Part shown: in pieces, positions 35,236-64,000 of the stretch
Numbering within the stretch: position 1 is the stretch's first letter
How the letters are laid out: every line of letters begins with the position of its first letter
Source: a virus
Strand: one strand, 5' to 3'
Virus record (IMG/VR): IMGVR_UViG_3300000216_000003
Location: 1-64,000 of that record
Length of the DNA: 64,000 nucleotides
Made by a program: the position numbers and the translations under genes
Notes under the pieces: generated by a model
The model's database searches: none
What the model was told of the DNA's origin: nothing
The model's input: only the letters and a program-made list of their open reading frames with translations

Positions 35236-35429
35236 AATAGTTTCAATATTAATTTAGTTAAAACATTTTTAGCTTTAGATGTAGTGCAATGATTTAAGAT
35301 GATTCTTGCATCATCAACACCTCTAACGAATAGAGGCATATGACGATCATCATCAAATACCACATATACATGACTACTATCTGGCCATTCATAGGCATTT
35401 ATAATTCTATGAGAATTTAATAATATCAT
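35232..35429 (-). CDS. Small protein, family F, C-tagged
   Basis: Ends CTTSKAKNVLTKLILKLL. Confidence 0.75.
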   Translation of the reverse strand: MILLNSHRIINAYEWPDSSHVYVVFDDDRHMPLFVRGVDDARIILNHCTTSKAKNVLTKLILKLL

Positions 35430-35850: not shown

Positions 35851-36284
35851 TATACAGTCCTTAATAAGTATCTCCCAATATTCATTTTTAATTGAGGTCT
35901 CTTTACCAGTTCAAAATATTCTTTTAACATACTTGGTTTTGGACTTTTTGCTATTAATAAATCAACACTATCTAATGATATCTTGTTATAATCACTAATA
36001 TGCACTTTTCTGGCGGTTAAATCAAAATACAGGATAGTATCGATAATATTAAAAGTTATTAATACTTGATCTTCGAAATCAAATATACAAACACCTGTAA
36101 ATTGTTCAATATCTGTATGAGGACAATTTTTTAAATGACAATCTCTTATTCTTTTCTGTTCTGATATGCGCTTAATATACCGATTGGATTGTGGTTCAAG
36201 GGAAGACCATTTATAACCAATACCAGTACTTATTGGTTTTTCATATTCTTTTTCACTAAGTACATCATATCCAAAATGACACAT
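35850..36284 (-). CDS. Hypothetical protein, C-tagged
   Basis: Ends IGRYLLRTV. Confidence 0.7.
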   Translation of the reverse strand: MCHFGYDVLSEKEYEKPISTGIGYKWSSLEPQSNRYIKRISEQKRIRDCHLKNCPHTDIEQFTGVCIFDFEDQVLITFNIIDTILYFDLTARKVHISDYNKISLDSVDLLIAKSPKPSMLKEYFELVKRPQLKMNIGRYLLRTV

Positions 36285-36562
36285 TATGATCTCTCTAGTA
36301 TAAGTTTAGTAAGTGCATTCCTAGCTTGTCGTGTGCTGCATCTAGGTAATAGTTTAAGCGCATCTTCTTTTGTTAAATGAATTGCCGCAGGAAACCTATT
36401 CCGACGAAATTGCCATTCATTATAATACGGCTCCGGTGTAATTCTGTATGAGTGTAGAAGTTGTTCATATTCAACTAACATAATCGTAGTAGTTAATAGA
36501 TGAGTTATGATATCTTTATATAATTGATTACCTCCATAATCAAATCCATAATCAAACCCCAT
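36284..36562 (-). CDS. Small protein, family F, C-tagged
   Basis: Ends CSTRQARNALTKLILERS; shares RI.xEPYYN with 34948. Confidence 0.75.
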   Translation of the reverse strand: MGFDYGFDYGGNQLYKDIITHLLTTTIMLVEYEQLLHSYRITPEPYYNEWQFRRNRFPAAIHLTKEDALKLLPRCSTRQARNALTKLILERS

Positions 36563-36759
36563 TATATAGACTCTAATATAAATTTAGTAAGTTCATTTTT
36601 TGCTTGAGGTGTAATGCATCTGGATAGCATATCTTGCGCCTTTATTTTATCCATCATAATATAATAAACTTTCCTATCCAGAGTTATTACTTTAAAATCT
36701 GGACAGGAAAAATGTTCGGTTGGAAGTATACGAATCTCAATTACATCAGTTACTGGCAT
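36562..36759 (-). CDS. Small protein, family F, C-tagged
   Basis: Ends CITPQAKNELTKFILESI. Confidence 0.75.
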   Translation of the reverse strand: MPVTDVIEIRILPTEHFSCPDFKVITLDRKVYYIMMDKIKAQDMLSRCITPQAKNELTKFILESI

Positions 36760-45182: not shown

Positions 45183-45521
45183 TTATGACCATTTTAAAAT
45201 TAGTTTTGTTATTGTTTTTTGATCCAAAGATGATTTACCATCTTTAAGCCTCTGTATCCATTCAATTTTAGATATTTCTTTATCAATAATATACCATCTA
45301 TCTGGATTATCATTATTAAATATTATAGCTGGTCCATCTTCTCTATGTAATAACCCATTATTAAACCAATATTTATTTCCTGTACTTGTATTTACAAAAG
45401 CATACCCATCTTCTCTATGTAGTTCTCCGTATGTATTTGTCCATATTAAATGGTCACCATCTTCATCAGTTTCACCTTTAAGATTAGGTGGATATATGTC
45501 AATTGTATAATGTTTACTCAT
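45183..45521 (-). CDS. HREDGPA-repeat protein, C-tagged
   Basis: Ends LDQKTITKLILKWS. Confidence 0.8.
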   Translation of the reverse strand: MSKHYTIDIYPPNLKGETDEDGDHLIWTNTYGELHREDGYAFVNTSTGNKYWFNNGLLHREDGPAIIFNNDNPDRWYIIDKEISKIEWIQRLKDGKSSLDQKTITKLILKWS

Positions 45522-45523
45522 TA

Positions 45524-45859
45524 TTAACTATTCTCCAGTATGATTCTGTTGATTGTCTTTTGATCCAGAGAGGATTTACCATCTCTTAAGTATTGAATCC
45601 ATTCATCTTTCGTTATATATTCACCATCAATATACCATTCATTAATATTTCCACTTTTCCAAATGCAAGCAGGACCATCTTCTCTATGTAACACGCCTCT
45701 ACAATACCAATATTCGGCACCAGTTTTATAAATAATTGCTGGTCCATTTTCTCTATGAAATAATCCATCAGAATCAGTCCATACACGATCACCATATTTA
45801 CATTCATCCCCATTTAAATTGGGAATAAATAATTCTTCATCGTATATGTCATTTGGCAT
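45524..45859 (-). CDS. HREDGPA-repeat protein, C-tagged
   Basis: Ends LDQKTINRIILENS. Confidence 0.8.
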   Translation of the reverse strand: MPNDIYDEELFIPNLNGDECKYGDRVWTDSDGLFHRENGPAIIYKTGAEYWYCRGVLHREDGPACIWKSGNINEWYIDGEYITKDEWIQYLRDGKSSLDQKTINRIILENS

Positions 45860-46179
45860 TAACTATGCTCCAGTATGAGTTTTAATTCTGTATTTCGACC
45901 TAAACTAGAGGCAGCTTCTTTAAGCCATTGAAGCCACTCATCTTTTGAAATATCTATTCCATAGACATACCATCTAAGATCATATGATTCATCAACAGCT
46001 GGACCATCTTCTCGATGTAACCACCCATGATAGAACCAATTAACATGCCCATCTGGATATATAATAGCTGGACCATCTTCACGATGCCATCTACCTTCAG
46101 AATCAGTCCATATCATATCTCCATCTTGGTCTAATTCACCTTTAATATTGGGTTTAGTGCGTACAGTTGTATTATTCAT
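45859..46179 (-). CDS. HREDGPA-repeat protein, C-tagged
   Basis: Ends ELKLILEHS. Confidence 0.8.
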   Translation of the reverse strand: MNNTTVRTKPNIKGELDQDGDMIWTDSEGRWHREDGPAIIYPDGHVNWFYHGWLHREDGPAVDESYDLRWYVYGIDISKDEWLQWLKEAASSLGRNTELKLILEHS

Positions 46180-46484
46180 ATATTAAGACATTTCTTAATA
46201 GATTTAATAGCAGCTTCCATCTTTAGACGGGCAGAAGAATTAGCACTATGAACTTTTAATTTGGGGCATTTAAAACTTTTATTTAAGTGTACTTGTTCTT
46301 CAATGTATAATAAAACATCATAACCAGTACCAATACCTTCATCGTCTCCTAAGTCATGATCTAAACTAATTACAGATATCCTTTCTGGATGTTTTAGTAA
46401 TGTTATTACTTCTTTAGGGGTTTTTAATAGTATCCAAGTATTATCATATGGAGTTCTTTCATCATCGAGATATATTTTCATCAT
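46176..46484 (-). CDS. Cyclic-phosphate-processing receiver-like domain protein
   Basis: KIYLDDERTP..ISLDHDLG..TGYDVL..VHSAN. Confidence 0.8.
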   Translation of the reverse strand: MMKIYLDDERTPYDNTWILLKTPKEVITLLKHPERISVISLDHDLGDDEGIGTGYDVLLYIEEQVHLNKSFKCPKLKVHSANSSARLKMEAAIKSIKKCLNI

Positions 46485-46744
46485 GAATTCTCCAATATTA
46501 GACGAGTAATTTTATCAATTGAAATACTCGGATTACCAGATTTAAGCCATTGTATCCATTGTTTCTTAGTCATAATATTACCGTGATTGTAATATATTTC
46601 GAATTTATTATTAGTAATCATAGCCGGGCCATCTTCTCGATGTAGTTCTCCTTTATCATCACACCAAATTAAACCACCATCTACAGTAGCGACACCTTGT
46701 ACATTACGACGACTATGTTTTATACTATCTTCATTAAATGTCAT
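46481..46744 (-). CDS. HREDGPA-repeat protein, C-tagged
   Basis: Ends ITRLILENS. Confidence 0.8.
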   Translation of the reverse strand: MTFNEDSIKHSRRNVQGVATVDGGLIWCDDKGELHREDGPAMITNNKFEIYYNHGNIMTKKQWIQWLKSGNPSISIDKITRLILENS

Positions 46745-47091
46745 GATTCCTCCAATATTAATCCAATTAATTCATTTCGCTCTTTTCTTGTTATATTTTT
46801 AATATTATCTAAAATATACCTAGCATCTTCTCCCCTCAATTCTGAAGTTTTTATATTTATAACAACTCCATTATCCCAAATATTTAATAATCCATGCATA
46901 ATATCTAATATTTTTCTAAAATCTAAATCATAATCATCAAACTCATTTGTAAAAATAGTTATATCCATATTACTAGAATACTTATTCTCATCTAAACATA
47001 CTCTAAATAATTCAGTTTCTAGTGTAATTTTGATCATTTTAGTAACATATGTAATAACTTTTTCTTCTGCCGCTTCTCGTCTCGATATCAC
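46741..47091 (-). CDS. Hypothetical protein, family G, C-tagged
   Basis: Ends ITRKERNELIGLILEES. Confidence 0.75.
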   Translation of the reverse strand: MISRREAAEEKVITYVTKMIKITLETELFRVCLDENKYSSNMDITIFTNEFDDYDLDFRKILDIMHGLLNIWDNGVVINIKTSELRGEDARYILDNIKNITRKERNELIGLILEES

Positions 47092-47450
47092 GATTGCTCC
47101 AATAGATGTCTTCTGAGTGAATTCTCTTCTTCTGAAGAAAGATTTTTACTTCTATTTAACATATCTCTAGTTTGACAATTATTCAATATATCTGCTCTAA
47201 CTGATATATTTATTATATCAGCACCGAAAAATACATCAGGGTCTAGAATATCCCTCCTAATTATATTATACCAATATTCTGATATATTAATATAGGATTC
47301 AAAATTCAAATCTTTAATCGGTAGATACCGGATAGAAATAGCCGTAATATTATAATCTGTTGTTGTAGTATATTTTACTATAAACAGATTAGATCCGATA
47401 GTCTTCTGAACTAGTTTTTTAACTTCTTTTATTAATTGATCAGTTGTCAC
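47088..47450 (-). CDS. Hypothetical protein, family G, C-tagged
   Basis: Ends LRRHLLEQS. Confidence 0.75.
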   Translation of the reverse strand: MTTDQLIKEVKKLVQKTIGSNLFIVKYTTTTDYNITAISIRYLPIKDLNFESYINISEYWYNIIRRDILDPDVFFGADIINISVRADILNNCQTRDMLNRSKNLSSEEENSLRRHLLEQS

Positions 47451-47815
47451 GATTGTTCCAATAGATGTCTATTTAACATATTAGTTTCTTTATTGGAAAG
47501 ATTTGGTATTATTCGGAATATATCCATTATTTGTTTTTTCTCTAATATATTAGTATTAATAATTAAATGCTTAATTTTATTATATGTTTTACTATCTCTA
47601 AACATATCTTCTATTTTATGTTTCAAATATTCATCAGTTGGAATAGTTCCAAGTAGAATATTACCTCTCATAATAGTAATAACTTCAGATTGTAGATACC
47701 ATATAGTTAAATACATAGTATTATTAATTCTAGAAGTATCTAATATGAAAAGTCGGTTGCCTAGTATATTTCGACATATAGTTCTTGTATTTCTAATTAT
47801 CTCTTTTTCAGTCAT
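47447..47815 (-). CDS. Hypothetical protein, family G, C-tagged
   Basis: Ends LNRHLLEQS. Confidence 0.75.
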   Translation of the reverse strand: MTEKEIIRNTRTICRNILGNRLFILDTSRINNTMYLTIWYLQSEVITIMRGNILLGTIPTDEYLKHKIEDMFRDSKTYNKIKHLIINTNILEKKQIMDIFRIIPNLSNKETNMLNRHLLEQS

Positions 47816-48372
47816 GATTGCTCCAATATCACTCTATTTAATCTAATCGTTTCTTTAACTGTAATAGAAGGGATAGTATCTAAAAGATGTAAAACTGCTG
47901 CTTTATTTAATTCTTCAAACACTATCTTTATTCTAATCCCTCTCATATCTCCAGTTTGAACAATTGCACCTCTCATAATTGGAATCTTCCATTTTACAGA
48001 GTTTTGCATCATTCTTCGTTGAATAAACATACGATTATTAGAAGTATTAGCTTCATGATCTACAAATATTCGAATATAACAATCAAATGGTTTAATACTG
48101 TTCCATTGTATTGTATGGTTATAATCGATTGCAAATAATCTATTTGGCAGTATCATTTTAGCTATCATAGTTACGTCATTTTTTATCTTATTTAATCTAC
48201 TTAATCTAGATCTATATACTAATTCACCAGTCTCTCTAGGAGATATAAAAGGGGGTGTTGATATACTACGAGGCATAGCCGGTATTGCGAATACGGGTAT
48301 TCCTGGTTCTATGATTGGATTTTCTTCATAAGACTTTATCCACATATCATGAAACGATTTTAAACTAAACAT
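47812..48372 (-). CDS. Hypothetical protein, family G, C-tagged
   Basis: Ends LNRVILEQS. Confidence 0.75.
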   Translation of the reverse strand: MFSLKSFHDMWIKSYEENPIIEPGIPVFAIPAMPRSISTPPFISPRETGELVYRSRLSRLNKIKNDVTMIAKMILPNRLFAIDYNHTIQWNSIKPFDCYIRIFVDHEANTSNNRMFIQRRMMQNSVKWKIPIMRGAIVQTGDMRGIRIKIVFEELNKAAVLHLLDTIPSITVKETIRLNRVILEQS

Positions 48373-48373
48373 T

Positions 48374-48721
48374 CTAAGAATCCTCCAATATTATACGAGT
48401 TAATATATTCTTTTCATAACTAGTAATATCATAAAGAGTATCAAGAAGAGATTGGGCTTCTTCCCTCCCCAATTTATTTATGGTTATATCTTCTACTCTT
48501 GCTCTTTTATCTGTTATTCCAGTATTTATTAATTGTTGTAGATTGTATAATAAAACAACTGATATTGAATCTTTATTTATATGAGATATTTTAATTTTTA
48601 CTTCATTATATTTTATACTTTTCTTTATCTTAAATAATCTAGTATTTGTCATTACTTCTATTATATAATACATACTATTCTTTATTGTATCTAAGTGAAC
48701 CCTTTTTTGAGAAGATATCAT
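48374..48721 (-). CDS. Hypothetical protein, family G, C-tagged
   Basis: Ends LTRIILEDS. Confidence 0.75.
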   Translation of the reverse strand: MISSQKRVHLDTIKNSMYYIIEVMTNTRLFKIKKSIKYNEVKIKISHINKDSISVVLLYNLQQLINTGITDKRARVEDITINKLGREEAQSLLDTLYDITSYEKNILTRIILEDS

Positions 48722-48990
48722 ATATTTTCCAGTAATGCTTTAGTAATTATATTTAACGGCAACTTTGAATGTTTTTTAATCCAATTTCTCCAATCTTCTT
48801 TACTAAGACTCCTCCCATGTATGTAAAATAGATCATCCTTATTAATATTTCCTCTTATAATAGCAGGGCCTTCTTCTCTATGTAATTTCTTATCTTTTCT
48901 GTAATAACAATTACCAAAAGGATCAATATATTGTATATCTAGTGTTATCCTTGCTATCTCAGTTATTACTGTAATATCATCCCGATCCAT
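48718..48990 (-). CDS. HREEGPA protein, C-tagged
   Basis: Ends ITKALLENI; promoter copy at 49025-49036. Confidence 0.75.
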   Translation of the reverse strand: MDRDDITVITEIARITLDIQYIDPFGNCYYRKDKKLHREEGPAIIRGNINKDDLFYIHGRSLSKEDWRNWIKKHSKLPLNIITKALLENI

Positions 48991-50837: not shown

Positions 50838-51332
50838 TTAAGGTCTTCTGCAGACCTTTTTACGGCCAGGCCATTGTTTTTTAGAACAGTCTTGACCAAG
50901 TTTTTGTAATTTTTGTATTACTTCGCCTATTGGGTTATTATATGGAAAGAAGCTACCATCATGCATATTCATATTCAATTCATAATGTATAATAGTACAT
51001 ACTCCAATTCCTTTATCTCCAACTGGAAGTTTAGCAACAAAATGAATATCTTCTTCTCCAGTTAAAATCATTAAACCATGGCGCAATCGAGATAAGACAA
51101 TATTCATTTGCTTATCAGAATTAGTTCGACCAATATAGATGGGTGCTCCGGGTTTAATATTTTCTGGGTTCTCTCCAGCCTTTTTACAGAGTGCGGCAAT
51201 ATAAACTTGATCTTGTTTTTCAATTGGACGGGAATCTGATTTTGAATTTTTCATTGCTACATCTAATACTTTATCAATAGAAAGCAAATTCACAGTTATA
51301 ATCCCTAATAAGTTTGAAATGTTGAAATCCAT
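50838..51332 (-). CDS. Hypothetical protein
   Basis: ORF; true start probably MKNSKS; hairpin downstream at about 50785-50830. Confidence 0.6.
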   Translation of the reverse strand: MDFNISNLLGIITVNLLSIDKVLDVAMKNSKSDSRPIEKQDQVYIAALCKKAGENPENIKPGAPIYIGRTNSDKQMNIVLSRLRHGLMILTGEEDIHFVAKLPVGDKGIGVCTIIHYELNMNMHDGSFFPYNNPIGEVIQKLQKLGQDCSKKQWPGRKKVCRRP

Positions 51333-52789
51333 TTATCATTAAATGGTGAGATTTGATTATCTTCTTGACTATAACTATCTTTAGCCATTGTCATATTTAC
51401 AGCATCAATATACATACTAAAACAACCTTCTTTTGTCTCAAATAATTTTTCATCAATTCCAATATGCAATAATTCTTTTTCATATTTACGGGCAAGACCA
51501 GTATCGATACCAATCTCAATATCTTTAATTTTATCACCGGCTAATTTAAGAGTTAAACCAATTAGCCAATTATTATAATAATTAGGATCAAAAGATTCTC
51601 CTCTACCAACAGGTTTAAAGTCGAGTAAAGTAATTCTTGCATTTGATAATCCTTGCATATGTGTAATTATATCATAAAAATCATGAATAGAGCTACTTCC
51701 CATTACATATTGAAAATTAAATTTATAATATTGCGGAGCATCTTTAGTAGTGTTTAATATATCTTCAGAATTAGAGATACTAACTGCATAATTAGCTCCT
51801 AATTCATCTAATTGTTTTGAATTCTTACGAACATATTCAATATTACGAGTAGTGAAATTAGGAATAATGTCTTGTTTCCGAAACTGTTCAAGAATCTGTA
51901 TAAAGTCTGGATGTGTTGTTGGTTCACCTCCTCCAATAGCTACTTCAAAAATATTGGCATCTCCAAGTGTTTTAATAATATGAGACATATTATCCAAAGT
52001 AGCATGTTTTCCTTTAGTAGAACTACCTTGATAACAAAAACTACAACCAGTTTCACAATAGTCTGTAATCTTTACATCTACTAGTTCAGGAGTTGTCGAT
52101 TTGATATAATCAGGGTGTGAACCATTTAATGTAAACCGTATCTTAGTTCCATTACTTTGATTAAATACAGCCCAATATCCTTTATCTTTTCTTGCTATTA
52201 CTTTTAATTTAGCAGCCCCATATGGAACATATTGTTGAATAGCATCTAAAGCATTAGGAGTTTTATACTCATCAGTAACATATTCTTCTTTATCTTCATC
52301 ATAGTATTCAGAATATGTGTCTGCGCTTAAATAATGACCATCCCCATTATCATTTCCACCAAGAATAACAATTTGATCATTATTCCCAATATATGCAATA
52401 ACATCATCTAAAAAATTAGAGTTTGGTTTATTATCCCTATGTGAATATGGAAATGTAAAACTAGACTGATGATCAACATAAGAGGGCTTAAAACCTTCTA
52501 CTTCACCTTCATCACCTTCAATATACTGTTTAGCACATTCTTTACCAACACGACGAAAAGTATCTTTTAATGCTCGTCGTTCAAGAGAGTTCTCTTCTGT
52601 TTGTCCTATAATTAAAGATAACATATAATGTTGTTTTGCTATTGGTGAAACTAATGTAAAATCATTCCAACCATATTGACCAACATCACTATCTCCAATA
52701 TCATCAGAGAAAGTATCTTTCTTAAAAACAATTGAGTGACTACTGCTACTATTTGTAGCAAATCCATATCGAATACTAGAAACTTTCAT
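51305..52789 (-). CDS. Radical SAM protein with an N-terminal GFATNSSSSHS domain
   Basis: PELVDVKITDYCETGCSFCYQ (CxxxCxxC), GGGEP, NFTT, KPVGRG, SMYIDAV. Confidence 0.88.
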   Translation of the reverse strand: MKVSSIRYGFATNSSSSHSIVFKKDTFSDDIGDSDVGQYGWNDFTLVSPIAKQHYMLSLIIGQTEENSLERRALKDTFRRVGKECAKQYIEGDEGEVEGFKPSYVDHQSSFTFPYSHRDNKPNSNFLDDVIAYIGNNDQIVILGGNDNGDGHYLSADTYSEYYDEDKEEYVTDEYKTPNALDAIQQYVPYGAAKLKVIARKDKGYWAVFNQSNGTKIRFTLNGSHPDYIKSTTPELVDVKITDYCETGCSFCYQGSSTKGKHATLDNMSHIIKTLGDANIFEVAIGGGEPTTHPDFIQILEQFRKQDIIPNFTTRNIEYVRKNSKQLDELGANYAVSISNSEDILNTTKDAPQYYKFNFQYVMGSSSIHDFYDIITHMQGLSNARITLLDFKPVGRGESFDPNYYNNWLIGLTLKLAGDKIKDIEIGIDTGLARKYEKELLHIGIDEKLFETKEGCFSMYIDAVNMTMAKDSYSQEDNQISPFNDKWISTFQTY

Positions 52790-53482: not shown

Positions 53483-53537
53483 ATATTAGAATCTAATATT
53501 TTTAGATTTTTCATTTTACCTTTAAGGAGCCTAACCT

Positions 53538-53888
53538 ATGTCTGAAGAAAATACACCTACCCACGAAGCACAGTCTGATACTCAAACAGAGCCCACAGAA
53601 GAACAAAAACAATTATTTATGCAGAAGATGCAAATGAAAGCTCAACAAGAAGCTTTACTAAAACATCAAATTGTTCAGTCTGCGTCTACAATTTTAGCTG
53701 GCATTTTTTCAAATACAACATCAAGTGTCGGTGGAATTAATAGTGATCCAACTAAGAATCTAGCTATTCGCAATAAGAGACTAGAAAAAGTCGGAGTTGC
53801 CGTAGATACTGCTATTACACTTATTTCTTATGTTAATGGTCTTGATCTTGATAAAGATGTCAAGAAGATGGGCCAAGAAAAGAAATAA
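53538..53888 (+). CDS. Hypothetical Q/E-rich protein, monocistronic
   Basis: SD AAGGAG; own promoter and terminator. Confidence 0.75.
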   Translation: MSEENTPTHEAQSDTQTEPTEEQKQLFMQKMQMKAQQEALLKHQIVQSASTILAGIFSNTTSSVGGINSDPTKNLAIRNKRLEKVGVAVDTAITLISYVNGLDLDKDVKKMGQEKK

Positions 53889-54125: not shown

Positions 54126-54173
54126 TATTATATTATATCTATATCAAATCCTTTAAAAAATAAAGGACGTTTT

Positions 54174-54383
54174 TTACGCCCAGTACAGTTTATTATATCT
54201 AATTACATTTTCTGTTGGATCTCCAATCATTTCTATAGCATAAGGAGAACGTCTGCAAATAGCATATGCATTCTCTTCGATTGGGGTATCTCTAAATTTT
54301 ATTAATATATTTACCCAAATATTATCCCAATATCTCCAAGACTTATTATCTAATAATAATGTATATGCATAGGATAATCTCAT
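54174..54383 (-). CDS. Small protein, family H (YxKLxW tag)
   Basis: Ends PTENVIRYNKLYWA. Confidence 0.75.
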   Translation of the reverse strand: MRLSYAYTLLLDNKSWRYWDNIWVNILIKFRDTPIEENAYAICRRSPYAIEMIGDPTENVIRYNKLYWA

Positions 54384-54385
54384 TT

Positions 54386-54595
54386 TTAACTCCAATATAA
54401 TTTATTATAGTTTTCGACTGCTGTTGTTGGATTCTTAATTACTTCTATAGTATGGTCTGCTACTCTACATATTTTATATGCATTCTCTTCAGTTGGTGTT
54501 TTCTCAAATTCTAATAGTAATAATTTCCATTTAATATCCCAAGAAGTATGTGGTGGTTCTTTTAACATTTGAACAAATTTATCAGATAATTCCAC
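54386..54595 (-). CDS. Small protein, family H
   Basis: Ends PTTAVENYNKLYWS; probable GTG start. Confidence 0.72.
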   Translation of the reverse strand: MELSDKFVQMLKEPPHTSWDIKWKLLLLEFEKTPTEENAYKICRVADHTIEVIKNPTTAVENYNKLYWS

Positions 54596-54597
54596 TA

Positions 54598-54810
54598 TTA
54601 ACTCCAATATAATTTATTATAAGTTTCGACTGCTGGTGTTGGATCTTTAATATTATTAATAGATTTAGGAAAAAATTTACAAACAATACATGCATTCTCT
54701 TCACTTGGTTTTCTGTGAAAATTCAATAAAGCTTGTTTATACCCCCTATTATTTCTTTTCTTCCTCCATTTTTTATTTATAATCTTAATAGATTCTTCGG
54801 ATAATTTCAT
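54598..54810 (-). CDS. Small protein, family H
   Basis: Ends PTPAVETYNKLYWS. Confidence 0.75.
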   Translation of the reverse strand: MKLSEESIKIINKKWRKKRNNRGYKQALLNFHRKPSEENACIVCKFFPKSINNIKDPTPAVETYNKLYWS

Positions 54811-55079
54811 TAAGACCACCACATCTTATGATATGTTATGACTGTTTCTGGGACATCTTTACAATACTTCAATATATCTGGATATACTTGTATTAATTTA
54901 TTTATATCAGAAATTGATATATCTTCATACTTATATGATTCTTTATTCTTAAACCATTCATAATAACCATGTGAATTTAACATAATATGTAGAGATGCTG
55001 TTAGTCTATTTTGACTATCGGGGATATAATCAACAGGACATTCAATAGTCGCTTTTTTTACCGTTGTATTTATTTGCAT
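54810..55079 (-). CDS. Small protein, family H
   Basis: Start MQINTT at 55079; ends PETVITYHKMWWS. Confidence 0.72.
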   Translation of the reverse strand: MQINTTVKKATIECPVDYIPDSQNRLTASLHIMLNSHGYYEWFKNKESYKYEDISISDINKLIQVYPDILKYCKDVPETVITYHKMWWS

Positions 55080-55318
55080 TATACCTCCTGTAGTTTTATA
55101 TATGTCTTTAGTTCTTGAGTAGGGTTTATAACCCAAGCATAGAATGTGTTGCTCCATGTTTGTTGTTCTGAATGTCTTTGTCTAAACATATGATATATAT
55201 TTATAGCGTTTTCGAACGTTGGATCGGCTGCCATCTTAAAGAATCCGTCTCGCCATTCAATTTCATCTGGAGTGGTAGAGTGCCAGGATTGAGTAATTAT
55301 GTCTTCTCGTAAGTGCAT
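55079..55318 (-). CDS. Small protein, family H2
   Basis: PTFENAINIY; ends PTQELKTYIKLQEV. Confidence 0.75.
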   Translation of the reverse strand: MHLREDIITQSWHSTTPDEIEWRDGFFKMAADPTFENAINIYHMFRQRHSEQQTWSNTFYAWVINPTQELKTYIKLQEV

Positions 55319-55563
55319 TAAGACTCCATTAGTTTTACGTAGTTGATTAGTTCTTGAGATGGGTCTTCGAACCAGGTGAAGAAAGAACCCTTATCCCATA
55401 TATCATTATCGAAATTATTAATTTTATATTGGTATATATTTATGGCATTTTCGAATGTTGGATTATTGTGGAATATTAAAAACACTTCTTTCCAATCATC
55501 ATGTTTCCATACATCTTCATCAACATCTATTAAATCGCAAAGTACTTCTTTTGATAATTGCAT
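55318..55563 (-). CDS. Small protein, family H2
   Basis: Start MQLSKE at 55563; ends PSQELINYVKLMES. Confidence 0.75.
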   Translation of the reverse strand: MQLSKEVLCDLIDVDEDVWKHDDWKEVFLIFHNNPTFENAINIYQYKINNFDNDIWDKGSFFTWFEDPSQELINYVKLMES

Positions 55564-55619
55564 TAGGAATCCATTAGTTTTACGTAGTTGATTAGTTCTT
55601 GAGATGGGTCTTCGAACCA
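55325..55619. repeat. Exact 50-bp direct repeat (55325-55374 = 55570-55619)
   Basis: TCCATTAGTTTTACGTAGTTGATTAGTTCTTGAGATGGGTCTTCGAACCA occurs twice; encodes the C-termini of adjacent paralogues. Confidence 0.9.
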
Positions 55620-55802
55620 AGAGAGGAAGCCGATTGAAGTCCATGCGTTATTCTCAAAATGTTTCGATTTTAAATGATATATATTTATAGCATTTTCAAG
55701 TGTAGGCTCTTTCATAAATAATATAAAACTATTTTTCCATTCTGGATCAGTTTTCCAATAGCTATGCATTACTGTATTTTCTGTATCATGAGTTAGTTTC
55801 AT
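55563..55802 (-). CDS. Small protein, family H2
   Basis: Ends PSQELINYVKLMDS. Confidence 0.75.
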   Translation of the reverse strand: MKLTHDTENTVMHSYWKTDPEWKNSFILFMKEPTLENAINIYHLKSKHFENNAWTSIGFLSWFEDPSQELINYVKLMDS

Positions 55803-55955
55803 TATATTTTTCCTTCGTTAATTTATTTAGCTGTAAAAATACATTTTCGCTATATTTTATCAAAGATGAAGAAAATATAAACGAAGATACATCAAACACG
55901 TCGTTGAGCCTCCCACGGCAAATGAAAAGATTAAATTTAAAACCCTTTCATTAAA

Positions 55956-55983
55956 ATAATATCTATATATTAGTTTTGAAAAC
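55956..55983 (-). promoter_or_regulatory. Phage promoter GTTTTCA-N9-TATAGATATTAT heading the leftward block
   Basis: Motif copy. Confidence 0.72.
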
Positions 55984-56545
55984 TTGGAAGCGGCCAGGGG
56001 ATTCCTCTCTTCCTTTATTTTTTATGTATATTCAATAAAAAATCATAAATTTTAATGTAATTATACATAATTTTTATAAATCTAACTATTAACTTAAAAA
56101 AACAGAGTTTCAGCGCGACGGCGAAACCCTAACAAAAGCTGTTAAGTTTTTAACTATATCAAATACTGAGTTAGACCTCCCACTTAAAAAATTTTTAGAA
56201 AAAAATGCCCCGTAAAACTATTCTAACTTCTATTAAGTAGTTTCACTTCTGAGACCAGAGTGCTACTTTTACTTAGCTCCTTAGAATAGGAAGAGTTAAG
56301 ACAACTCACTTTGAATTATCTTAAGTACAAGTTTATTATTTCTATTAATTCTTAGTATTTTATTTTTTAATTTAATTAACTTATTGTCTTAGTTTACTTT
56401 AAAATCTTTAAGAAAGATATAATGAGTAATAGATACTATCTAGTTCAATTTCTTTTGGTTATGGAATATTATATATATATATTCTTGGTTCTTCACACTT
56501 TGACCTAATAAGTCCTTATTTTTACTGTATTTTTTAAAACTTATA

Positions 56546-56557
56546 TATAGATATTAT
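56546..56557 (+). promoter_or_regulatory. Phage promoter core TATAGATATTAT
   Basis: Upstream of the AP2-like gene. Confidence 0.65.
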
Positions 56558-56615
56558 AAAGTAAAGAATAGGGTTATTTTTCAGACTTAACTTAAATACA
56601 GGGAGTATACTCAAA

Positions 56616-57113
56616 ATGAATACTGAAGATCAGCATATGCGCGGAGTTAATGAAGTGGTAATTAATAAGGTTCCTTATATATCGGTTACTTATGGGAGAC
56701 GAGGAAACGATAATTATAGAAACCATCGTATACCTCTTGATGGAAGGTATGATAAAAAAGATGCATTCAAGATAGGGAAATTCTTGCGAATGGATATATC
56801 ATTTGGAAATCCAGATGCAACTGTTGAAAGTACTATAAGAAACCATAAAGAATTATCACATCTAGAATATAGTGGATTAGATTCTACAAATACTAGTGGG
56901 ATTGCTGGGGTTTTTTTTACTAAAAATAACAATAGCTGGCGAGCTTATTTTGGAACACCTAGTACATCTACTCATAAAAGCGCATCTTTTTCTATTAAAA
57001 AATTCGGGAATGATAAAGCCAAACGAAAGGCAATTACTCTAAGAAAATTATGGGAAGGTGGCTCTAATATTACCCGCAAAGAATTTCTAAAGATGATCTC
57101 CGGCGTTTGTTAA
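56616..57113 (+). CDS. AP2-like DNA-binding domain protein
   Basis: NTSGIAGV..WRAYF..SFSIKKFG..AKRKAITLRK; no HNH motif seen. Confidence 0.7.
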   Translation: MNTEDQHMRGVNEVVINKVPYISVTYGRRGNDNYRNHRIPLDGRYDKKDAFKIGKFLRMDISFGNPDATVESTIRNHKELSHLEYSGLDSTNTSGIAGVFFTKNNNSWRAYFGTPSTSTHKSASFSIKKFGNDKAKRKAITLRKLWEGGSNITRKEFLKMISGVC

Positions 57114-57123
57114 TCTTTTCAAC

Positions 57124-57157
57124 TGCTCCTAGGACTTTCCTAGGGGCTTTTATTTTT
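57124..57157 (+). terminator. Intrinsic terminator
   Basis: GCTCCTAGGA-ctt-TCCTAGGGGC-TTTT. Confidence 0.75.
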
Positions 57158-57220
57158 GGACCAAAGATATATAGATATAATATATTGAAAATAAATTTTT
57201 AAGAATTATAGGAATTTAAT

Positions 57221-57484
57221 ATGTGGATTGATGAGAATGATTTAAGAGTATTACATGTATATGATCTCGATCTATTTGAACTTGGTCGATTACCGTCTGA
57301 TAAACAAATACAAAATAATCCAGATGTTGTGTCAATGGAAGACTGCATAGAACTTTTAAACTATGTCGAAGTTGATGAAGATGAAGCATTAGAATTAATC
57401 CGCAAGTGGAAGTTCACAATTAAATATATTGAGGAACCGACAATTGCAGTTACTAATTATCATACTCTATTATGGGAAGTTTAA
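57221..57484 (+). CDS. Small protein with the family H tail
   Basis: Promoter 57170-57181; ends PTIAVTNYHTLLWEV. Confidence 0.72.
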   Translation: MWIDENDLRVLHVYDLDLFELGRLPSDKQIQNNPDVVSMEDCIELLNYVEVDEDEALELIRKWKFTIKYIEEPTIAVTNYHTLLWEV

Positions 57485-58027
57485 ATGATTTCAACTCAAG
57501 ATGCTAGTGGTATCCATTTTACATTTGATAATAAATTTATATTAAGTATTCAATATGGATATGGTAATTATTGTGAGAATAGAAGTGTTGATCAGACATT
57601 AGATAAGCCAGTTGATTATTTATCTTTAAATCACAAACCACATAAATCAATAAATGCTGAAATTGCTATATTGCATCAAGATAAAGATATTAAATTCTAT
57701 GAAAATAACGATATGATGACATTTGGCAGAGTTGCTAATGGATTAGATGATGAAGTAGCCGGATGGATCCCTACAGAGAAGATTATGGATGTAATGGAAT
57801 GGGTAAGACGATTACCAACTACATATAGACATACTTGTGATATATTAGACTTTCCAATTAAAGGTAGAATAGTAGAAGATGACTATCGGAATATTCTCTG
57901 GTACCCAAAACCATGGAATAATGAGTTAATATTTAAGGCTATTACTCAATCTGAGGATGCTATTCATTATATTGAATCACCATCTATAGATATTCAAAAT
58001 TATTATAAATTAAAATGGATAGTATAA
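57485..58027 (+). CDS. Phage hypothetical domain fused to the family H tail
   Basis: FDNKFILSIQYG..NYC..AEIA..VAGW; ends PSIDIQNYYKLKWIV. Confidence 0.75.
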   Translation: MISTQDASGIHFTFDNKFILSIQYGYGNYCENRSVDQTLDKPVDYLSLNHKPHKSINAEIAILHQDKDIKFYENNDMMTFGRVANGLDDEVAGWIPTEKIMDVMEWVRRLPTTYRHTCDILDFPIKGRIVEDDYRNILWYPKPWNNELIFKAITQSEDAIHYIESPSIDIQNYYKLKWIV

Positions 58028-58233
58028 TGCATGTTAATAAAGTAGTATTAAATATTGCAAGAACTAAATTTAATATAGATAGTAAACTTAAACATTTAGT
58101 ACTTAATTTTAATGATAATCCAACTGAAGAGAATGCTTATGAATTTTGTCGCCATTATGAAATCACAATACCGTTATTTATTAAGAACCCTACGGATAAT
58201 GTTCGGAATTATCACAAACTCTTCTGGTCCTAA
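58027..58233 (+). CDS. Small protein, family H
   Basis: PTEENAYEFCR; ends PTDNVRNYHKLFWS. Confidence 0.75.
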   Translation: MHVNKVVLNIARTKFNIDSKLKHLVLNFNDNPTEENAYEFCRHYEITIPLFIKNPTDNVRNYHKLFWS

Positions 58234-58237
58234 ACAA

Positions 58238-58477
58238 ATGACAGTTAGTCGATTGGTCTATCGTATGATGATTGAAAATAAACATGCTCCAAATGACCCT
58301 GGGACTATTTATTGGTCAACAAACGTTCCAGTTTCTAATACTGAAGTATTGAATATATTAGCATCTGATAGAGGCCTAATGCAAAGTACTTTAATGAGTT
58401 ATCTAAATAATCCAACTCCAGAAGTAACTAAGTTTTGGGAACGTGAACAATTATATAGGAAACTAAAAGAAGTATGA
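58238..58477 (+). CDS. Small protein with an H-like tail
   Basis: Start MTVSRL at 58238; ends NPTPEV..LYRKLKEV. Confidence 0.65.
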   Translation: MTVSRLVYRMMIENKHAPNDPGTIYWSTNVPVSNTEVLNILASDRGLMQSTLMSYLNNPTPEVTKFWEREQLYRKLKEV

Positions 58478-60090
58478 TGGATTTACCAGTACGATATATT
58501 CCAATAAATTATCAAACTTTTAGAGCAGTTATTAAGATAACCGTTAAACCAATGGTAAATACTCTACGGATCGAGTATAGTTATCATGACCTCAAACAGC
58601 CACAACTAATACAAACTGTGGAGAAAGCTTTTCTAGAGGACCCCTCTGCTAATAATATATTTAATACTCTACCACTAGAAATGTTATTTAAACATGACAT
58701 CTCTGTGGCTCAAGCAGCATCTCTGGTTTTTTATCTTGAGAATAAATTAAAAGATCCGAAAGATTTTATCCCGATTGACTTACCAAATTTAAAATTATAT
58801 CTACAAAAGTCTCAAATCTATTTAATATATACATTTATTAAATCCGTATCTGAACAATATGAAATAATATTATCTAATTTAAAAAATGAAGGAAATAATA
58901 AAAAGAATGAAGATACTAAAGAGGAGGAAGTAAGTAATGCTAGCAGATCTACTACTTCCGGCGATGTTCGTAACGATGTTCCTGTTGTTCCTAGTAGAGT
59001 TGATAAATCACTGTTGCCCGAGAAGAACGGAGAAATAACAGATATTTTAGAAGAGGCTTTTTCCCTTTCTCCTAATAAAATTGTTAATTTCTACTTAACT
59101 AAGCAAATCATTAATAATAGTCACAGCTGTATCATAGAAGAGAACGGGAATAATATCACCATTGGGATAATCCCCCTTATAGATGTTGAACTTTATAGTT
59201 ATTCTCTATCTAATGTTAGTGATTTGAATAATGTTATTAATTCTTTTGATATTAATCAAGATGATATTATTATTAAGATTAAAACAGCATGTCAACATTT
59301 AAATTATATAATTAATGAACGGCAAAATGTGAAACCATTATTGTTAACGGCGGCATTACAAGTGGTTTCATTCTTAATCTATCTTTACCGTATTAAATTG
59401 CCAAATACTAAATCGGATAACTTCGAGAACATTATTAATGGTTCAATTCAAAGAATTATGATTAATGTATTCAAAAGTCAGACTTCAATCCTCTTTAAGT
59501 TTAAAGATTATTTGGAATTAGATTATGATGAAGAAATTAAGACTATTAATTCATCAGTTGAGAAATACAATTATCTATTAAAAATTGATAAAGATGAATT
59601 TATCGATAGTGTACTGGCGGATGTTAAAACATCTAAAACAACTGAAGAAGAATTAGAATTACCCTTGATTAATACACCTACTGTGATTGATATTACTAAG
59701 TATTTTGGTACTACTATTGATTGGAAAAATGATAAACGTCTTTTGGCATATGAAGTTATTGAAAATCCTAGACACAAAGTCATTAGTCAGTCATATAATC
59801 AATTACTAAAAATTAGCCAAAGTGGTACGAATCTTGCGATAAAAAATATGAATTTGATTGTCTCGAAATATTATGATATAATTACAACTAAGATATTTAA
59901 AGAAATTGACAATAATCAAGAACTAGTAAAGACTAATGTTAGTACATTATTATTAATGAAAAAGTTTATTATTCCATTTGTAAGTAAAAGTACAAGTACA
60001 TATACCCTCCTATTTTTATTATATCAAGTAGTAATACCACATATTCATAATATGCATGGACAAACTCAGTTCATAGATGTATTTCACTAA
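58474..60090 (+). CDS. Large hypothetical protein
   Basis: 538-aa ORF; no recognised motif. Confidence 0.7.
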   Translation: MMDLPVRYIPINYQTFRAVIKITVKPMVNTLRIEYSYHDLKQPQLIQTVEKAFLEDPSANNIFNTLPLEMLFKHDISVAQAASLVFYLENKLKDPKDFIPIDLPNLKLYLQKSQIYLIYTFIKSVSEQYEIILSNLKNEGNNKKNEDTKEEEVSNASRSTTSGDVRNDVPVVPSRVDKSLLPEKNGEITDILEEAFSLSPNKIVNFYLTKQIINNSHSCIIEENGNNITIGIIPLIDVELYSYSLSNVSDLNNVINSFDINQDDIIIKIKTACQHLNYIINERQNVKPLLLTAALQVVSFLIYLYRIKLPNTKSDNFENIINGSIQRIMINVFKSQTSILFKFKDYLELDYDEEIKTINSSVEKYNYLLKIDKDEFIDSVLADVKTSKTTEEELELPLINTPTVIDITKYFGTTIDWKNDKRLLAYEVIENPRHKVISQSYNQLLKISQSGTNLAIKNMNLIVSKYYDIITTKIFKEIDNNQELVKTNVSTLLLMKKFIIPFVSKSTSTYTLLFLLYQVVIPHIHNMHGQTQFIDVFH

Positions 60091-61695: not shown

Positions 61696-61881
61696 ATGAA
61701 ACTGAACGTAACAAAAAAAGAATTAAAATTTTTAGATGTTACAGATACTATTATTATAGAAACTAGAGATAAAAAATTATTGAAAATAAAGCCTATTGGA
61801 AAAGGGTTTAATATTAGTATCGATGATATTATATACGATGTGAGTGATGGAACCATTAAAAAAATAGGGACTAATGATTAA
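61696..61881 (+). CDS. Hypothetical protein
   Basis: Overlaps the RNAP start. Confidence 0.6.
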   Translation: MKLNVTKKELKFLDVTDTIIIETRDKKLLKIKPIGKGFNISIDDIIYDVSDGTIKKIGTND

Positions 61882-64000
61882 TAAACAAGATCTACCTGAA
61901 ATTACATCATCAAAATTATATTTAGATAGTAAGAAGTCGCAAGTAGATCAAGCCGGTTTAATTTCTGAAATTGCCTTTGGACCGGTTAAATCTTATAAAT
62001 GCTCATGTGGTAATCTTAATTCCAAAGTTATTCATGAGAATCAAAGATGTATTAAGTGTAAAGTGGAATGTATTGATAATGCTTCTAGGTATACTAGATT
62101 TGCTAAAATCAGTTTACCATTTCCAATACTCAAAAAACTCGAAAGACAAAAACTACTCAAATTTGTAAAGCGGAAGAATGCACACATATTAGATCCGGTT
62201 CAGTCAGATCGACTAACAACTACATCATTTTATATTCAATATATTAAAGATACAGATAAACTGGAATTAGTTACTGATTATGATGCTGGAAACTGTATAC
62301 CATTAGTAATAACTGGCTTATTTACATTATATTTAGGATTGTATATTGCACAAGTATACTTTACTTCTAAATCAGCAGAAGAACTATTATCTAATTTCTT
62401 TTTTGATCTTTTAGTTGTCCCTCCAAATACACGTATGTCTATACTTGTAGAGAAGGATAGTAAGATGACTATGATCACTCATGAATTAGATAATATTTAT
62501 ATTAAAATTCTAAGACTAAAGCATTATTGCACTAAGTTTGATACATATCAACAGATTCGAGAATATACTGATATGATAATTCAATCATTAGATAATAAGA
62601 TTGGGATTCCAATTACTGATGATATTTTAATTACATTTGATCAATTAACAAGTAAAATTACTTATTATTGCGATGATGTATATTCTCATATTACAGGAAC
62701 TCTTAGTGGAAAGACTGGGTTGATTCGGGATCAATTTTTAGGTAGATCTATTGACTTTAGTAGCAGAGCAGTAATTGTACCAGATCCAACTTTAAAAGCT
62801 CATGAAATAATAATTCCTCGTAAGATATTCTTAAAACTATGGCTTATAGAATACTATAGATATTTAAGAACTATGCTTAAAGATGAATGGGCCACTCTTC
62901 AGACAGCGAAGATATTATCATCAGTTACGAAGACAGAAAATTCATATACGAATGAATTAGAATATGTTGATGAATTTATTGAATACTTTTTTAGAGAAAG
63001 TGACTATAGACAACGAATTGTACTCGTAAACAGACAACCGACATTGTGGCGATACGGTATGCCCGGAGTTATTGTATCTGGAATTACAGAAGAGAATGTA
63101 ATTAAAATTAGCCCTATTAGCACACAACCATTAAATGCTGACTTTGATGGTGATACATATGCTCTTTATCGGTTACATGATAGAGGAGCTATTCAAGAAA
63201 TATCGCAAAATGCTTACACTTTAAATAATATTCAATATGATCATAATACAGCATATCTTAATACTTTATCAATGGAATCTAAATATAGTTTTGTTCTTCT
63301 AACTTACTCCAAGATAAATAATGATTTAGAATATATCACTATAGATTCTTTAAAATCACTACCAATATATGAAGAACCAGAGTTAAATAAATTAGTACTA
63401 TTTAATAAGAAGAGATATTCATATGGAGTATGTCTATTAAATAAATGGTGTGGATTTGATAATATTATACTAACTAAAGAATCATCATCTGATGATCTTT
63501 CGAAAGAAATACATAAAGATAGTTTGTCTAATGAAGATTACTTTAATAGAATAAATAAAGTAAATCAATTGTTAAGTTGGTTGGTATCTACTCATTCAAA
63601 GGAAACATTAACTTTACCTTTTAACGAAGCAATTACTATTGTACATAGTGCACGTGAGAATCATCTTCTCCAACATCTACCATCTAATCCACATATAGGG
63701 CATCAAGTACATCAAACTTTTGTAAATGATGCATATAAAAATATTCCGGAAGAGTTTAAACTTGCCAAATTAGCCAAGTCTAAATATAATAAAGTACAAT
63801 TTTCAAGATCTCTTGTATCTATTGGATATATTGCAGATGATAGAAATATCATCTCACCAGAACCAGTAACGACTGCTCTACTTAGTGGATTAACTGAAGA
63901 AGAATTTTTCAGAACATCATATGGAAGTCGTAAAGGTATTGTTGACAAGCATGATGCAACACCCCGGTCTGGATACTTGGAAAGATCATTAGTATTAAAC
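61874..64000 (+). CDS. rpoC: Phage DNA-directed RNA polymerase beta-prime subunit (truncated by the window end)
   Basis: Not in the ORF track. Manual: GLISEIAFGPVKSYKCSCG..RCIKC (Zn finger), LSGKTGLIRDQFLGRSIDFSSRAVI, VNRQPTLW, NADFDGD (63134-63154), bridge helix GLTEEEFF..GSRKGIVD..SGYLERSLV; these motifs are in one frame reaching position 64000. Confidence 0.93.
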   Translation, partial: MINKQDLPEITSSKLYLDSKKSQVDQAGLISEIAFGPVKSYKCSCGNLNSKVIHENQRCIKCKVECIDNASRYTRFAKISLPFPILKKLERQKLLKFVKRKNAHILDPVQSDRLTTTSFYIQYIKDTDKLELVTDYDAGNCIPLVITGLFTLYLGLYIAQVYFTSKSAEELLSNFFFDLLVVPPNTRMSILVEKDSKMTMITHELDNIYIKILRLKHYCTKFDTYQQIREYTDMIIQSLDNKIGIPITDDILITFDQLTSKITYYCDDVYSHITGTLSGKTGLIRDQFLGRSIDFSSRAVIVPDPTLKAHEIIIPRKIFLKLWLIEYYRYLRTMLKDEWATLQTAKILSSVTKTENSYTNELEYVDEFIEYFFRESDYRQRIVLVNRQPTLWRYGMPGVIVSGITEENVIKISPISTQPLNADFDGDTYALYRLHDRGAIQEISQNAYTLNNIQYDHNTAYLNTLSMESKYSFVLLTYSKINNDLEYITIDSLKSLPIYEEPELNKLVLFNKKRYSYGVCLLNKWCGFDNIILTKESSSDDLSKEIHKDSLSNEDYFNRINKVNQLLSWLVSTHSKETLTLPFNEAITIVHSARENHLLQHLPSNPHIGHQVHQTFVNDAYKNIPEEFKLAKLAKSKYNKVQFSRSLVSIGYIADDRNIISPEPVTTALLSGLTEEEFFRTSYGSRKGIVDKHDATPRSGYLERSLVLN

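Follow-up and report, generated by a model that had tools for sequence, protein, structure and literature searches.

A cluster of tandem paralogues in a probable jumbo-phage fragment, a new single-repeat branch of DUF4116 with a probable capping helix in place of a C-terminal addressing tag

DUF4116 (PF13475) is an abundant, widespread repeat family, without known function and without solved structure. An alpha-solenoid was predicted for it by a 2021 modelling study (PMC8078820). Alpha-solenoids of the HEAT, ARM and TPR types follow a helix-turn-helix repeat logic and possess capping helices. C-terminal tags of the degron or sorting type are short peptides, exposed and portable. Some jumbo phages are known to possess sorting systems. 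At TAATG and ATGA overlaps, a Shine-Dalgarno (SD) site within the 3' end of the upstream gene has been described across prokaryotes (PMC6728339). The cluster described here occupies positions 54174–58477 of the window, a 64,000-nt stretch of a viral record of 106,480 bp. The source is probably a fragment of a marine jumbo phage, as a gene for a multisubunit RNA polymerase beta'-like protein is present in the record.

In a first-pass annotation, eleven ORFs with tails of the type P-x6-Y-x-K-L-x-W-S, seven on the minus and four on the plus strand on either side of a gap at 55.8–56.6 kb, were described as a second tag dialect. All eleven ORFs and their tails are present within 54174–58477, and Leu or Met is found at position −4 in all but one (10 of 11). 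The pattern P.{5,7}[YF].[KT][LM].{2,4}$ is matched by 10 of the 517 ORFs (≥35 aa) of the whole record, all within 54174–58233; no other ORF of the record ends so. Clustering of ten tail-bearing ORFs in about 4 kb is far beyond chance. With the family HMM, members score 50–88 bits vs. <10 bits for every other ORF of the record. The residues K, L, N, Y and I are frequent at the GC content of the record (30%), but resemblance by chance or by the composition of an AT-rich genome is extremely improbable and was rejected on the 4-kb clustering and the gap in HMM score.

For six of the ORFs, the start of the longest reading frame lay too far upstream and was corrected to one overlapping or closely following the preceding stop (TAATG etc.). 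Corrected products are 68–89 aa in length, except for g9 (180 aa). On the minus strand, g7 (55563..55802; 79 aa, subfamily B) heads the operon, ends in PSQELINYVKLMDS and has its own SD, AAGGA, 5' of the ATG. It is followed by g6 (55318..55563; 81 aa, subfamily B), the ATG of which overlaps the g7 stop (TAATG), and by g5 (55079..55318; 79 aa, subfamily B), the final codons of which, CAG GAG GTA, supply AGGAGG for g4. Next is g4 (54810..55079; 89 aa), which has P0112 of a second phage as orthologue and resembles the family over its C-terminal ~38 aa only. Subfamily A is represented by g3 (54598..54810; 70 aa), with the tail PTPAVETYNKLYWS and TGG AGT supplying GGAG for g2, by g2 (54386..54595; 69 aa) and by the last gene of the operon, g1 (54174..54383; 69 aa), with the tail ...YNKLYWA and final codons without SD. 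On the plus strand, g8 (57221..57484; 87 aa; orthologue P0142) matches the family with its C-terminal 40 aa. It is followed by g9 (57485..58027; 180 aa; orthologue P0006), which consists of an N-terminal domain (residues 1–140) and a C-terminal repeat-and-cap unit (~141–180). The start of g10 (58027..58233; 68 aa, subfamily A) overlaps the g9 stop. The tail of g11 (58238..58477; 79 aa) reads NNPTPEV, then a 7-residue insert, then LYRKLKEV.

The conserved part exceeds the 14-aa tail. A motif P(T/S)xENA..I is found further upstream, 22 residues from the tail P in g1–g3 and g10, and 31–33 residues from it in g5–g7 because of a 9–11-residue insertion within the repeat of subfamily B. With the tails removed, seven of the eleven proteins (g1, g2, g3, g10 and g5, g6, g7) still match each other and are homologous throughout; tail-less g4, g8, g9 and g11 have no detectable match among the eleven. 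Only the repeat-plus-cap unit is shared by g4, g8 and g9: their leave-one-out alignments span 31–40 residues, not 14 (E 0.012 for g4, 2.2e-9 for g8). g11 is not recognised out of sample (leave-one-out E 0.87, ranking below unrelated ORFs) and is a doubtful member on account of this and of its interrupted tail. The family thus comprises ten solid members and one doubtful. Homology of all eleven proteins throughout, which the first-pass annotation had named as the observation contradicting a mobile tail module, was not found. Since the bodies are not all homologous throughout, the C-terminal unit does sit on different bodies (g4, g8, g9). To this extent the mobile module stands; what is shared, however, is a folded repeat with its cap. 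The same applies to g9, first described as carrying the tail on an unrelated longer domain. Its N-terminal 140 aa are indeed an orphan domain, for which ESM Atlas and word-index searches gave only g9 itself and one orthologue, but the shared part is a DUF4116-type unit of ~40 residues.

The family profile, searched against 1.84 billion representatives, gave 342 matches at E ≤ 1e-3 and 32 at E ≤ 1e-10, with E down to 4e-19 for the best multi-repeat proteins. Long matches carry 5–14 matched stretches each, at family-profile positions ~28–62, and PF13475 is present on 88 of the 100 checked (10/10, then 78/90). Alignment of the family with DUF4116 two-repeat units by hhalign (probability 96.2%, E 2.7e-9) places family positions 32–61 on unit positions 2–31, i.e. 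on one repeat and the 'NPTxxV' start of the next. By this alignment, the tail corresponds to the opening part of a second DUF4116 repeat of 22 residues. The spacing P34–P56 in g1–g3 and g10 equals the DUF4116 period, canonical units being likewise 22 residues apart. The same shortened half-repeat ending occurs in 65 of 133 long matches, which stop 10–30 residues past the last 'NP[ST]xxV'. Searched singly in Pfam, ten window proteins have no DUF4116 match even at E ≤ 10 (single window sequences fall below the gathering threshold of 24.9 bits). Scanning all six frames of the entire record with PF13475 gave nothing, and Pfam and PHROGs searches with single proteins gave nothing usable, only weak phrog_5925 matches at E about 1e-3. 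No window protein alone reaches the Pfam model; the DUF4116 link rests on profile-level searches. Y-x-K-L-x-W differs from the canonical DUF4116 helix (QLxAV); an aromatic residue at +7 is rare, occurring in 55 of 1040 internal repeats and in only 10 of 65 terminal half-repeats of the long matches. Of the tail-less sequences, g9 ranks first (E 0.012) under a canonical one-unit DUF4116 HMM and g8 ranks third (E 0.19), which is suggestive only. Before the tail, g4, g8 and g9 resemble the canonical repeat only weakly (E 0.012 at best). Each family protein holds one full repeat and a half-repeat, with no array of several repeats. The cluster is a new, divergent, single-repeat branch of DUF4116.

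The AlphaFold model of g2 (pLDDT 93.5) is a compact, all-helical, five-helix domain (helices 5–12, 21–32, 36–43, 49–52 and 58–68). The unit is helix / short helix / helix, and the tail forms helix 58–68 (block pLDDT 97). The model of g9 is confident for its C-terminal 40 residues only (~141–180, pLDDT 71–90; final 20 residues 84–90), with the same three-helix pattern. The tail is thus predicted to be a packed terminal helix of a folded repeat, not an exposed or disordered peptide; structure prediction, proposed in the first-pass annotation for the tail module, gave no free tag. Foldseek searches against PDB and BFVD returned no match at E ≤ 0.001, BFVD entries named DUF4116 appearing only at non-significant E. 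With VIA-align wide, Z was 3.0–4.2 at best, and the weak neighbours were all generic TPR, HAT, HEAT or TOG segments. Some DUF4116 matches also score with HEAT, Arm or TPR models. Homodimer prediction for g2 scored 0.01, which is evidence neither way.

Orthologues of each subfamily are present on an 8.5-kb contig of the second phage; the family therefore diversified before the two phages split. The tail motif is kept in every orthologue, at 33–61% overall identity. Between clear orthologue pairs the tail is no better conserved than the body: 64% vs. 63% for g9 and P0006 (61% identity), 57% vs. 53% overall for the g4 pair and 36% vs. 41% overall for the g8 pair. Within subfamilies A and B, no other segment is as well conserved between the phages as the tail (e.g. 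12/14 in g5 vs. 52% overall). The cluster had no match among GenBank phages by megablast or tblastn, and no related loci were found among metagenome contigs or viral contigs.

These data bear on the addressing tag, a portable C-terminal signal that a receptor common to all carriers would recognise (e.g. for packaging, for import into a compartment of the phage or for transfer to a hub protein), forming a second class beside the ...[KR]x[IL]LExS tails of the first dialect. Conservation within subfamilies A and B and retention of the motif in all second-phage orthologues are what a functional tag would also predict or are in keeping with one, as are bodies without detectable kinship (g4, g8, and g9 with its orphan domain) and a probable jumbo-phage origin. 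The tag is nevertheless very unlikely: the tail is modelled very confidently as a packed helix and corresponds by homology to the initial helix of a repeat unit, an ending that many long DUF4116 proteins likewise have; the common segment is 31–40 residues long; no gene of the record outside the one cluster has the tail; and clear orthologues do not conserve it above the body. No candidate receptor was found. Neither a second specificity class, given a DUF4116-homologous terminal helix that is modelled as integral, nor a separate receptor, of which nothing is indicative, is upheld. Leu/Met at −4 seems to tie these tails to the first dialect by coincidence only, the Leu here belonging to the helix motif Y-x-K-L.

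At the DNA level, all ten junctions are overlaps or gaps of 0–5 nt: six overlaps of the TAATG type and four gaps (g8–g9, 0 nt; g3–g2, 2 nt; g2–g1, 2 nt; g10–g11, 4 nt). GGAG or AGGAGG is present at four of the ten, within the final codons of g2, g3, g5 and g6; elsewhere only weaker purine runs (GGA or less) occur. By these signals the operon is taken to be translationally coupled, the SD lying within the 3' part of the preceding gene. The last 2–3 residues of the tail overlap the SD of the next gene (TGG AGT, CAG GAG GTA, ATG GAG). Genome-wide, SD 4-mers starting −10 to −7 from the stop occur in 23, 13, 13 and 10 genes vs. 1.26 expected per position, and positions −4 and −3 show an excess of the rare codons TTG, CTG and GAG. 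The pair Leu(−4)-Glu(−3) of the first dialect is often encoded by NTG-GAG, which forms the SD of the next gene. Direct repeats have a period of 212 bp in g1–g3 and of 239–245 bp in g5–g7. The tail DNA of g6 and g7 is 100% identical over about 45–60 nt, synonymous sites included (68% overall), and that of g2 and g3 is 86–93% identical (62% overall), which points to junctions homogenised between neighbouring copies, by gene conversion or recent unequal crossing-over. A pure DNA-level artefact, in which tails resemble each other only through the SD and start of the next gene and gene conversion, the peptide being unselected, would draw on these SD sites, stop/start overlaps, codon enrichments and the g6/g7 identity. 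It is very unlikely. The SD spans the last 2–3 codons only, and P, V/L, Y, K and L sit 15–40 nt further upstream; genes on either strand, and those of the second phage, retain the motif; g1, without a downstream gene, still has ...YNKLYW; and the DUF4116 match is at the protein level.

The promoter motif TATATAGATAT(A/T)AT, which recurs across the genome, has copies ~157 nt 5' of g7 (55959..55969, minus strand) and 43 nt 5' of g8 (57168..57178, plus strand), the latter just 3' of a terminator-like hairpin (57125–57147). A terminator-like hairpin with T-run (54165..54181, minus strand) directly follows g1. Since a genome-wide motif precedes both gene blocks, there is no mark of a special early class. 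Placement among the first genes of both divergent units, as first described, holds for position only: g7–g1 are a whole operon, and the plus side opens with an AP2-domain gene having its own promoter motif and terminator. A sigma-70 consensus scan gave fewer sites than shuffled sequences did; in the 55.8–56.6 kb gap, Rfam and tRNA scans found nothing but one chance-level hit. RNA evidence for the cluster is thin: a marine metatranscriptome run from that study contains contigs identical to 58082–58251 and 58372–58522, where DNA carry-over is possible, and stretches without coverage are uninformative.

Overall, the eleven ORFs are best explained, with high probability, as paralogues that arose by tandem duplication and encode small all-helical proteins. 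On this reading, their conserved C-terminal 31–40 residues are one DUF4116-type helical repeat followed by a shortened half-repeat capping the fold. P-x6-Y-x-K-L-x-W-S is the capping helix, with Pro-Ser/Thr at the helix start and Y, K-L and W, the best-conserved positions, probably packing against the repeat. Tail resemblance is sharpened by SD overlap of the last 2–3 codons and by homogenised junctions. As the tail is no detachable address label, ordinary gene-family biology applies. Purely by inference, the products would be putative small alpha-solenoid-type protein-binding adaptors, with the repeat and cap as scaffold and with target specificity coming from the divergent N-terminal halves or, in g9, from the extra domain; a putative role in host take-over or anti-defence is plausible. 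It is unlikely that the unit is a shared docking domain bringing diversified 'heads' (variable N-terminal halves and the 140-aa domain of g9) to one common partner, which could be a host hub protein or an open-ended phage solenoid. If true, a phage adaptor or addressing family would have arisen from a single DUF4116 repeat, the first role assigned to this widespread repeat.

The candidate second addressing code of the phage is accordingly taken off the list. C-terminal look-alikes can arise from a solenoid capping half-repeat, from codons doubling as ribosome-binding site and from homogenised tandem junctions, and the SD effect needs control before the much larger first dialect of the genome is taken for a tag. 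DUF4116 gains a minimal single-repeat branch, of which the 69-aa member g2 would be an easy target for structure determination.

Compared with C-terminal degron and sorting tags, the segment shares the extreme C-terminal place and presence in several proteins, but is predicted to be a packed helix of a folded repeat unit and is restricted to a single cluster of paralogues. Intragenic SD sites at stop/start overlaps are seen at the family junctions and genome-wide; they account for the last 2–3 tail residues only, not for the P-x6-Y-x-K-L core. HEAT, ARM and TPR solenoids resemble the family in architecture only, without significant structural or sequence match to the window proteins. DUF4116 is closest. 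Shared with it are the 22-residue period opening with (N)P(S/T), an all-helical model (g2), the C-terminal shortened half-repeat, as in about half of long DUF4116 members, and the joining of repeats to varied N-terminal domains, e.g. PcfJ-like or DUF7666 in other proteins. The family is distinguished from DUF4116 by one full repeat and cap instead of 5–14 repeats, by the cap helix Y-x-K-L-x-W instead of QLxAVxxxG and, in subfamily B, by the insertion of 9–11 residues inside the repeat.

The eleven small ORFs and their shared C-terminal tails (P-x6-Y-x-K-L-x-W-S), seven on the minus strand (g7 first to g1 last, 54174–55802) and four on the plus strand (g8–g11, 57221–58477), are all present as described in the first-pass annotation. 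The regular expression of the tail is matched by 10 of 517 ORFs (≥35 aa, whole record), all within 54174–58233; a family HMM run over the ORFs of the record scores the eleven at 29–88 bits and all others below 10 bits. Six ORF starts were corrected. The true starts overlap the preceding stop (TAATG and similar) or come closely after it, giving proteins of 68–89 aa, plus one of 180 aa. The shared part extends beyond the tail alone: in the alignment a second motif, P(T/S)xENA..I, lies 22 residues upstream of the tail Pro-Thr. Mutual recognition persists after removal of the tail among g1, g2, g3 and g10 (subfamily A) and g5, g6 and g7 (subfamily B); family recognition is not found for g4, g8, g9 and g11 with their tails cut off. 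Leave-one-out searches with the full sequences recover g8 (E 2.2e-9), g9 (E 3e-4) and g4 (E 0.012) via their last 31–40 residues, and do not recover g11 (E 0.87). The eleven proteins are therefore not all homologous throughout, as they would be if the tail were simply the conserved end of one fold: seven are, three share a C-terminal unit of ~35 residues alone, and the eleventh is doubtful. For the N-terminal 140 residues of g9, the sole relative found is one orthologue. The tail had also been proposed as a mobile module; the modularity is real, but its level is that of the folded repeat unit (last 31–40 residues of g8, g9 and g4).

The structure of g2 was modelled by AlphaFold2 with the family alignment. 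Mean pLDDT is 93.5, with five helices at residues 5–12, 21–32, 36–43, 49–52 and 58–68. The tail is the last helix of the model, where confidence is highest, and both helices that follow a Pro-Thr start two residues past the proline. In the g9 model confidence is limited to the last 40 residues, which again show the pattern helix, short helix, helix. Structure searches with the models gave nothing significant; the weak resemblances were to TPR, HAT or HEAT segments and to a few viral proteins carrying the name DUF4116.

The cluster contains tandem direct DNA repeats of 212 bp (g1–g3) and 239–245 bp (g5–g7). Neighbouring genes are most alike in DNA where they encode the two protein motifs. At their 3' ends (55318–55380 versus 55563–55625), following starts included, g6 and g7 are 100% identical over about 45–60 nt, the genes being 68% identical overall; the tails of g2 and g3 are 86–93% identical, against 62% overall. 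Because identity peaks at tails and motifs, the nucleotide alignments point to homogenisation of neighbouring copies by gene conversion or recent unequal crossing-over. Within the final codons of a gene lies the ribosome-binding site of the next: TGG AGT TAA ahead of the g1 and g2 starts, CAG GAG GTA TAATG ahead of g4, ATG GAG TCT TAATG ahead of g5, and weaker purine runs at the remaining junctions. Genome-wide, Shine-Dalgarno 4-mers starting at −10 to −7 from the stop occur in 23, 13, 13 and 10 genes (expectation 1.26 per position), TTG or CTG encodes Leu at −4 in 43% of cases (11% in gene bodies), and GAG encodes Glu at −3 in 52% (18% in gene bodies). That overlapping gene pairs carry intragenic Shine-Dalgarno motifs is known as a general feature (PMC6728339). 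The W-S, E-S and E-V endings are accounted for in this way. A purely nucleotide-level origin of the tail likeness would have to cover the P-x6-Y-x-K-L core as well; the Shine-Dalgarno sequence fails to explain this core, since it lies upstream and g1, at the end of its operon, retains it, and such an origin is considered very improbable.

Other C-terminal tails in the same genome, with [KR]x[IL]LExS, had been read as a first dialect of the tag. In the whole record, 56 of 214 crude gene calls end in [KR]x[ILVMK]Lxxx (e.g. window 657–2433, 8193–8871, 34253–36759 and 45183–48990). In many of these tails Leu(−4)-Glu(−3) is encoded by TTG, CTG or CTA followed by GAG, with strong enrichment of rare codons. 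Since these codons give GGAG 7–10 nt ahead of a next start that overlaps the stop (TAATG or ATGA), part of this tag is the Shine-Dalgarno sequence of the next gene; this leaves the upstream [TS][KR]x[IL] part unexplained.

The record contains a promoter-like motif, TATATAGATAT(A/T)AT, 19 times in exact form (e.g. at window positions 3173, 9379, 32070, 40437, 44048, 49028, 53469, 55959, 56544, 57168 and 61033), often with a CCACGTTTT-type hairpin tail ahead of it. All copies are co-oriented with the nearest downstream ORF call and lie 24–116 nt upstream of it, although for the copy before g7 (55959–55969, minus strand) this call is doubtful (37 aa) and g7 itself is about 157 nt away. With this copy and a terminator-like hairpin after g1 (54165–54181), g7–g1 form one complete operon of family members only. 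A further copy precedes g8 (57168–57178), and g8–g11 are the opening of a longer plus-strand unit. Since this promoter type recurs throughout the genome, the clusters cannot be placed in a special temporal class. Transcription in the g10–g11 region is weakly hinted at by two RNA-library contigs, which are identical to 58082–58251 and 58372–58522. Midway through the strand-switch region, the gene at 56616–57113 (+) encodes a 165-aa protein whose AP2 DNA-binding domain matches PF00847 above threshold (E 3.4e-10). The gene is its own promoter-to-terminator unit (motif 56544–56554, terminator-like hairpin 57125–57147), and the protein is possibly a regulator or what is left of a homing endonuclease. 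At 55985–56290 (minus strand), the ORF-free gap has G+C-rich islands within very A+T-rich DNA. RNA of the minus strand there folds more favourably than shuffled sequences (z −2.96, 1 of 100) and contains no Rfam families or tRNAs; the stretch may encode a structured RNA or have a part in replication or regulation. A lone plus-strand gene (53538–53888) with its own motif at 53469 lies between minus-strand units. RNA-library contigs cover 53532–53805, and several differences in some of them hint at a related strain.

The record is a single linear IMG/VR virus sequence of 106,480 bp, of which the window forms the first 64 kb, with a GC content of 30% and a CheckV completeness of 41%. Its genes include those for topoisomerase II subunits, a helicase, a clamp loader, a radical-SAM protein and a multisubunit RNA-polymerase beta'-like protein. 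The same proteins are also found on a separate contig of 284,614 bp; together with the low CheckV completeness, this makes the record a probable jumbo-phage fragment. Three runs with the label marine metagenome, which all belong to a single study of 2016, contain its DNA. The beta'-like protein (1017 aa, window 61874–64000, continuing to 64927 in the record) shows about 24% identity to beta' from jumbo phages of Rhizobium. A radical-SAM / Fe-S oxidoreductase domain (phrog_16999, E 6e-33, CxxxCxxC motif) is the C-terminal half of a 494-aa protein (51305–52789, −), whose N-terminal half is without a match.

Ten small homologues (P0026, P0048, P0072, P0075, P0091, P0112, P0120, P0142, P0146 and P0006) are all located on one other contig of 8.5 kb. 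They include clear orthologues of g4, g8, g9 and subfamily B, so the cluster and its subfamilies are older than the split of the two phages. A profile built from the eleven proteins was searched against 1.84 billion representative proteins and gave 342 matches at E≤1e-3. Beyond the family and a handful of small relatives, these are long proteins, each with 5–14 separate alignments to profile positions ~28–62 and therefore with a tandem repeat. PF13475 (DUF4116), for which a modelling study predicted an alpha-solenoid (PMC8078820), is assigned by Pfam to 10 of 10 and 78 of 90 matches tested; its own threshold is reached by no single window protein. In hhalign, the family (21 sequences) aligns with DUF4116 two-repeat units at a probability of 96.2% (E 2.7e-9), family positions 32–61 covering one repeat and the NPTxxV with which the following repeat begins. 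On profile comparison, the window family is a divergent, single-repeat branch of the known DUF4116 repeat family, recognisable with profiles only.

The members are quite likely small alpha-solenoid-type proteins. One DUF4116 repeat and a capping helix would form the conserved scaffold and the N-terminal half the variable part; the family would have expanded by tandem duplication, and its genes would be translated by coupling. Alpha-solenoid-type repeat proteins are usually protein binders. Beside a strand switch in a large phage, a tandem family of very small, diversifying proteins may plausibly serve as host-directed or anti-defence binders.

The tails had been assigned to a second dialect of an addressing system. 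Within subfamilies A and B, conservation is highest in the tails; in g9, g4 and g8, the clear orthologue pairs, the tails are conserved no better than the body. The repeat of the long DUF4116 matches, IKNPSExVQLxAVxxxGxAIxY, has a period of 22 residues, equal to the P34–P56 spacing of the window family. The final NP[ST]xxV lies 10–30 residues before the C-terminus in 65 of 133 long matches, so a truncated C-terminal half-repeat is common in these proteins. An addressing tag is thus unsupported and regarded as unlikely: the tail, the last helix of the g2 model, is the same kind of ending as the truncated half-repeat of long DUF4116 proteins.
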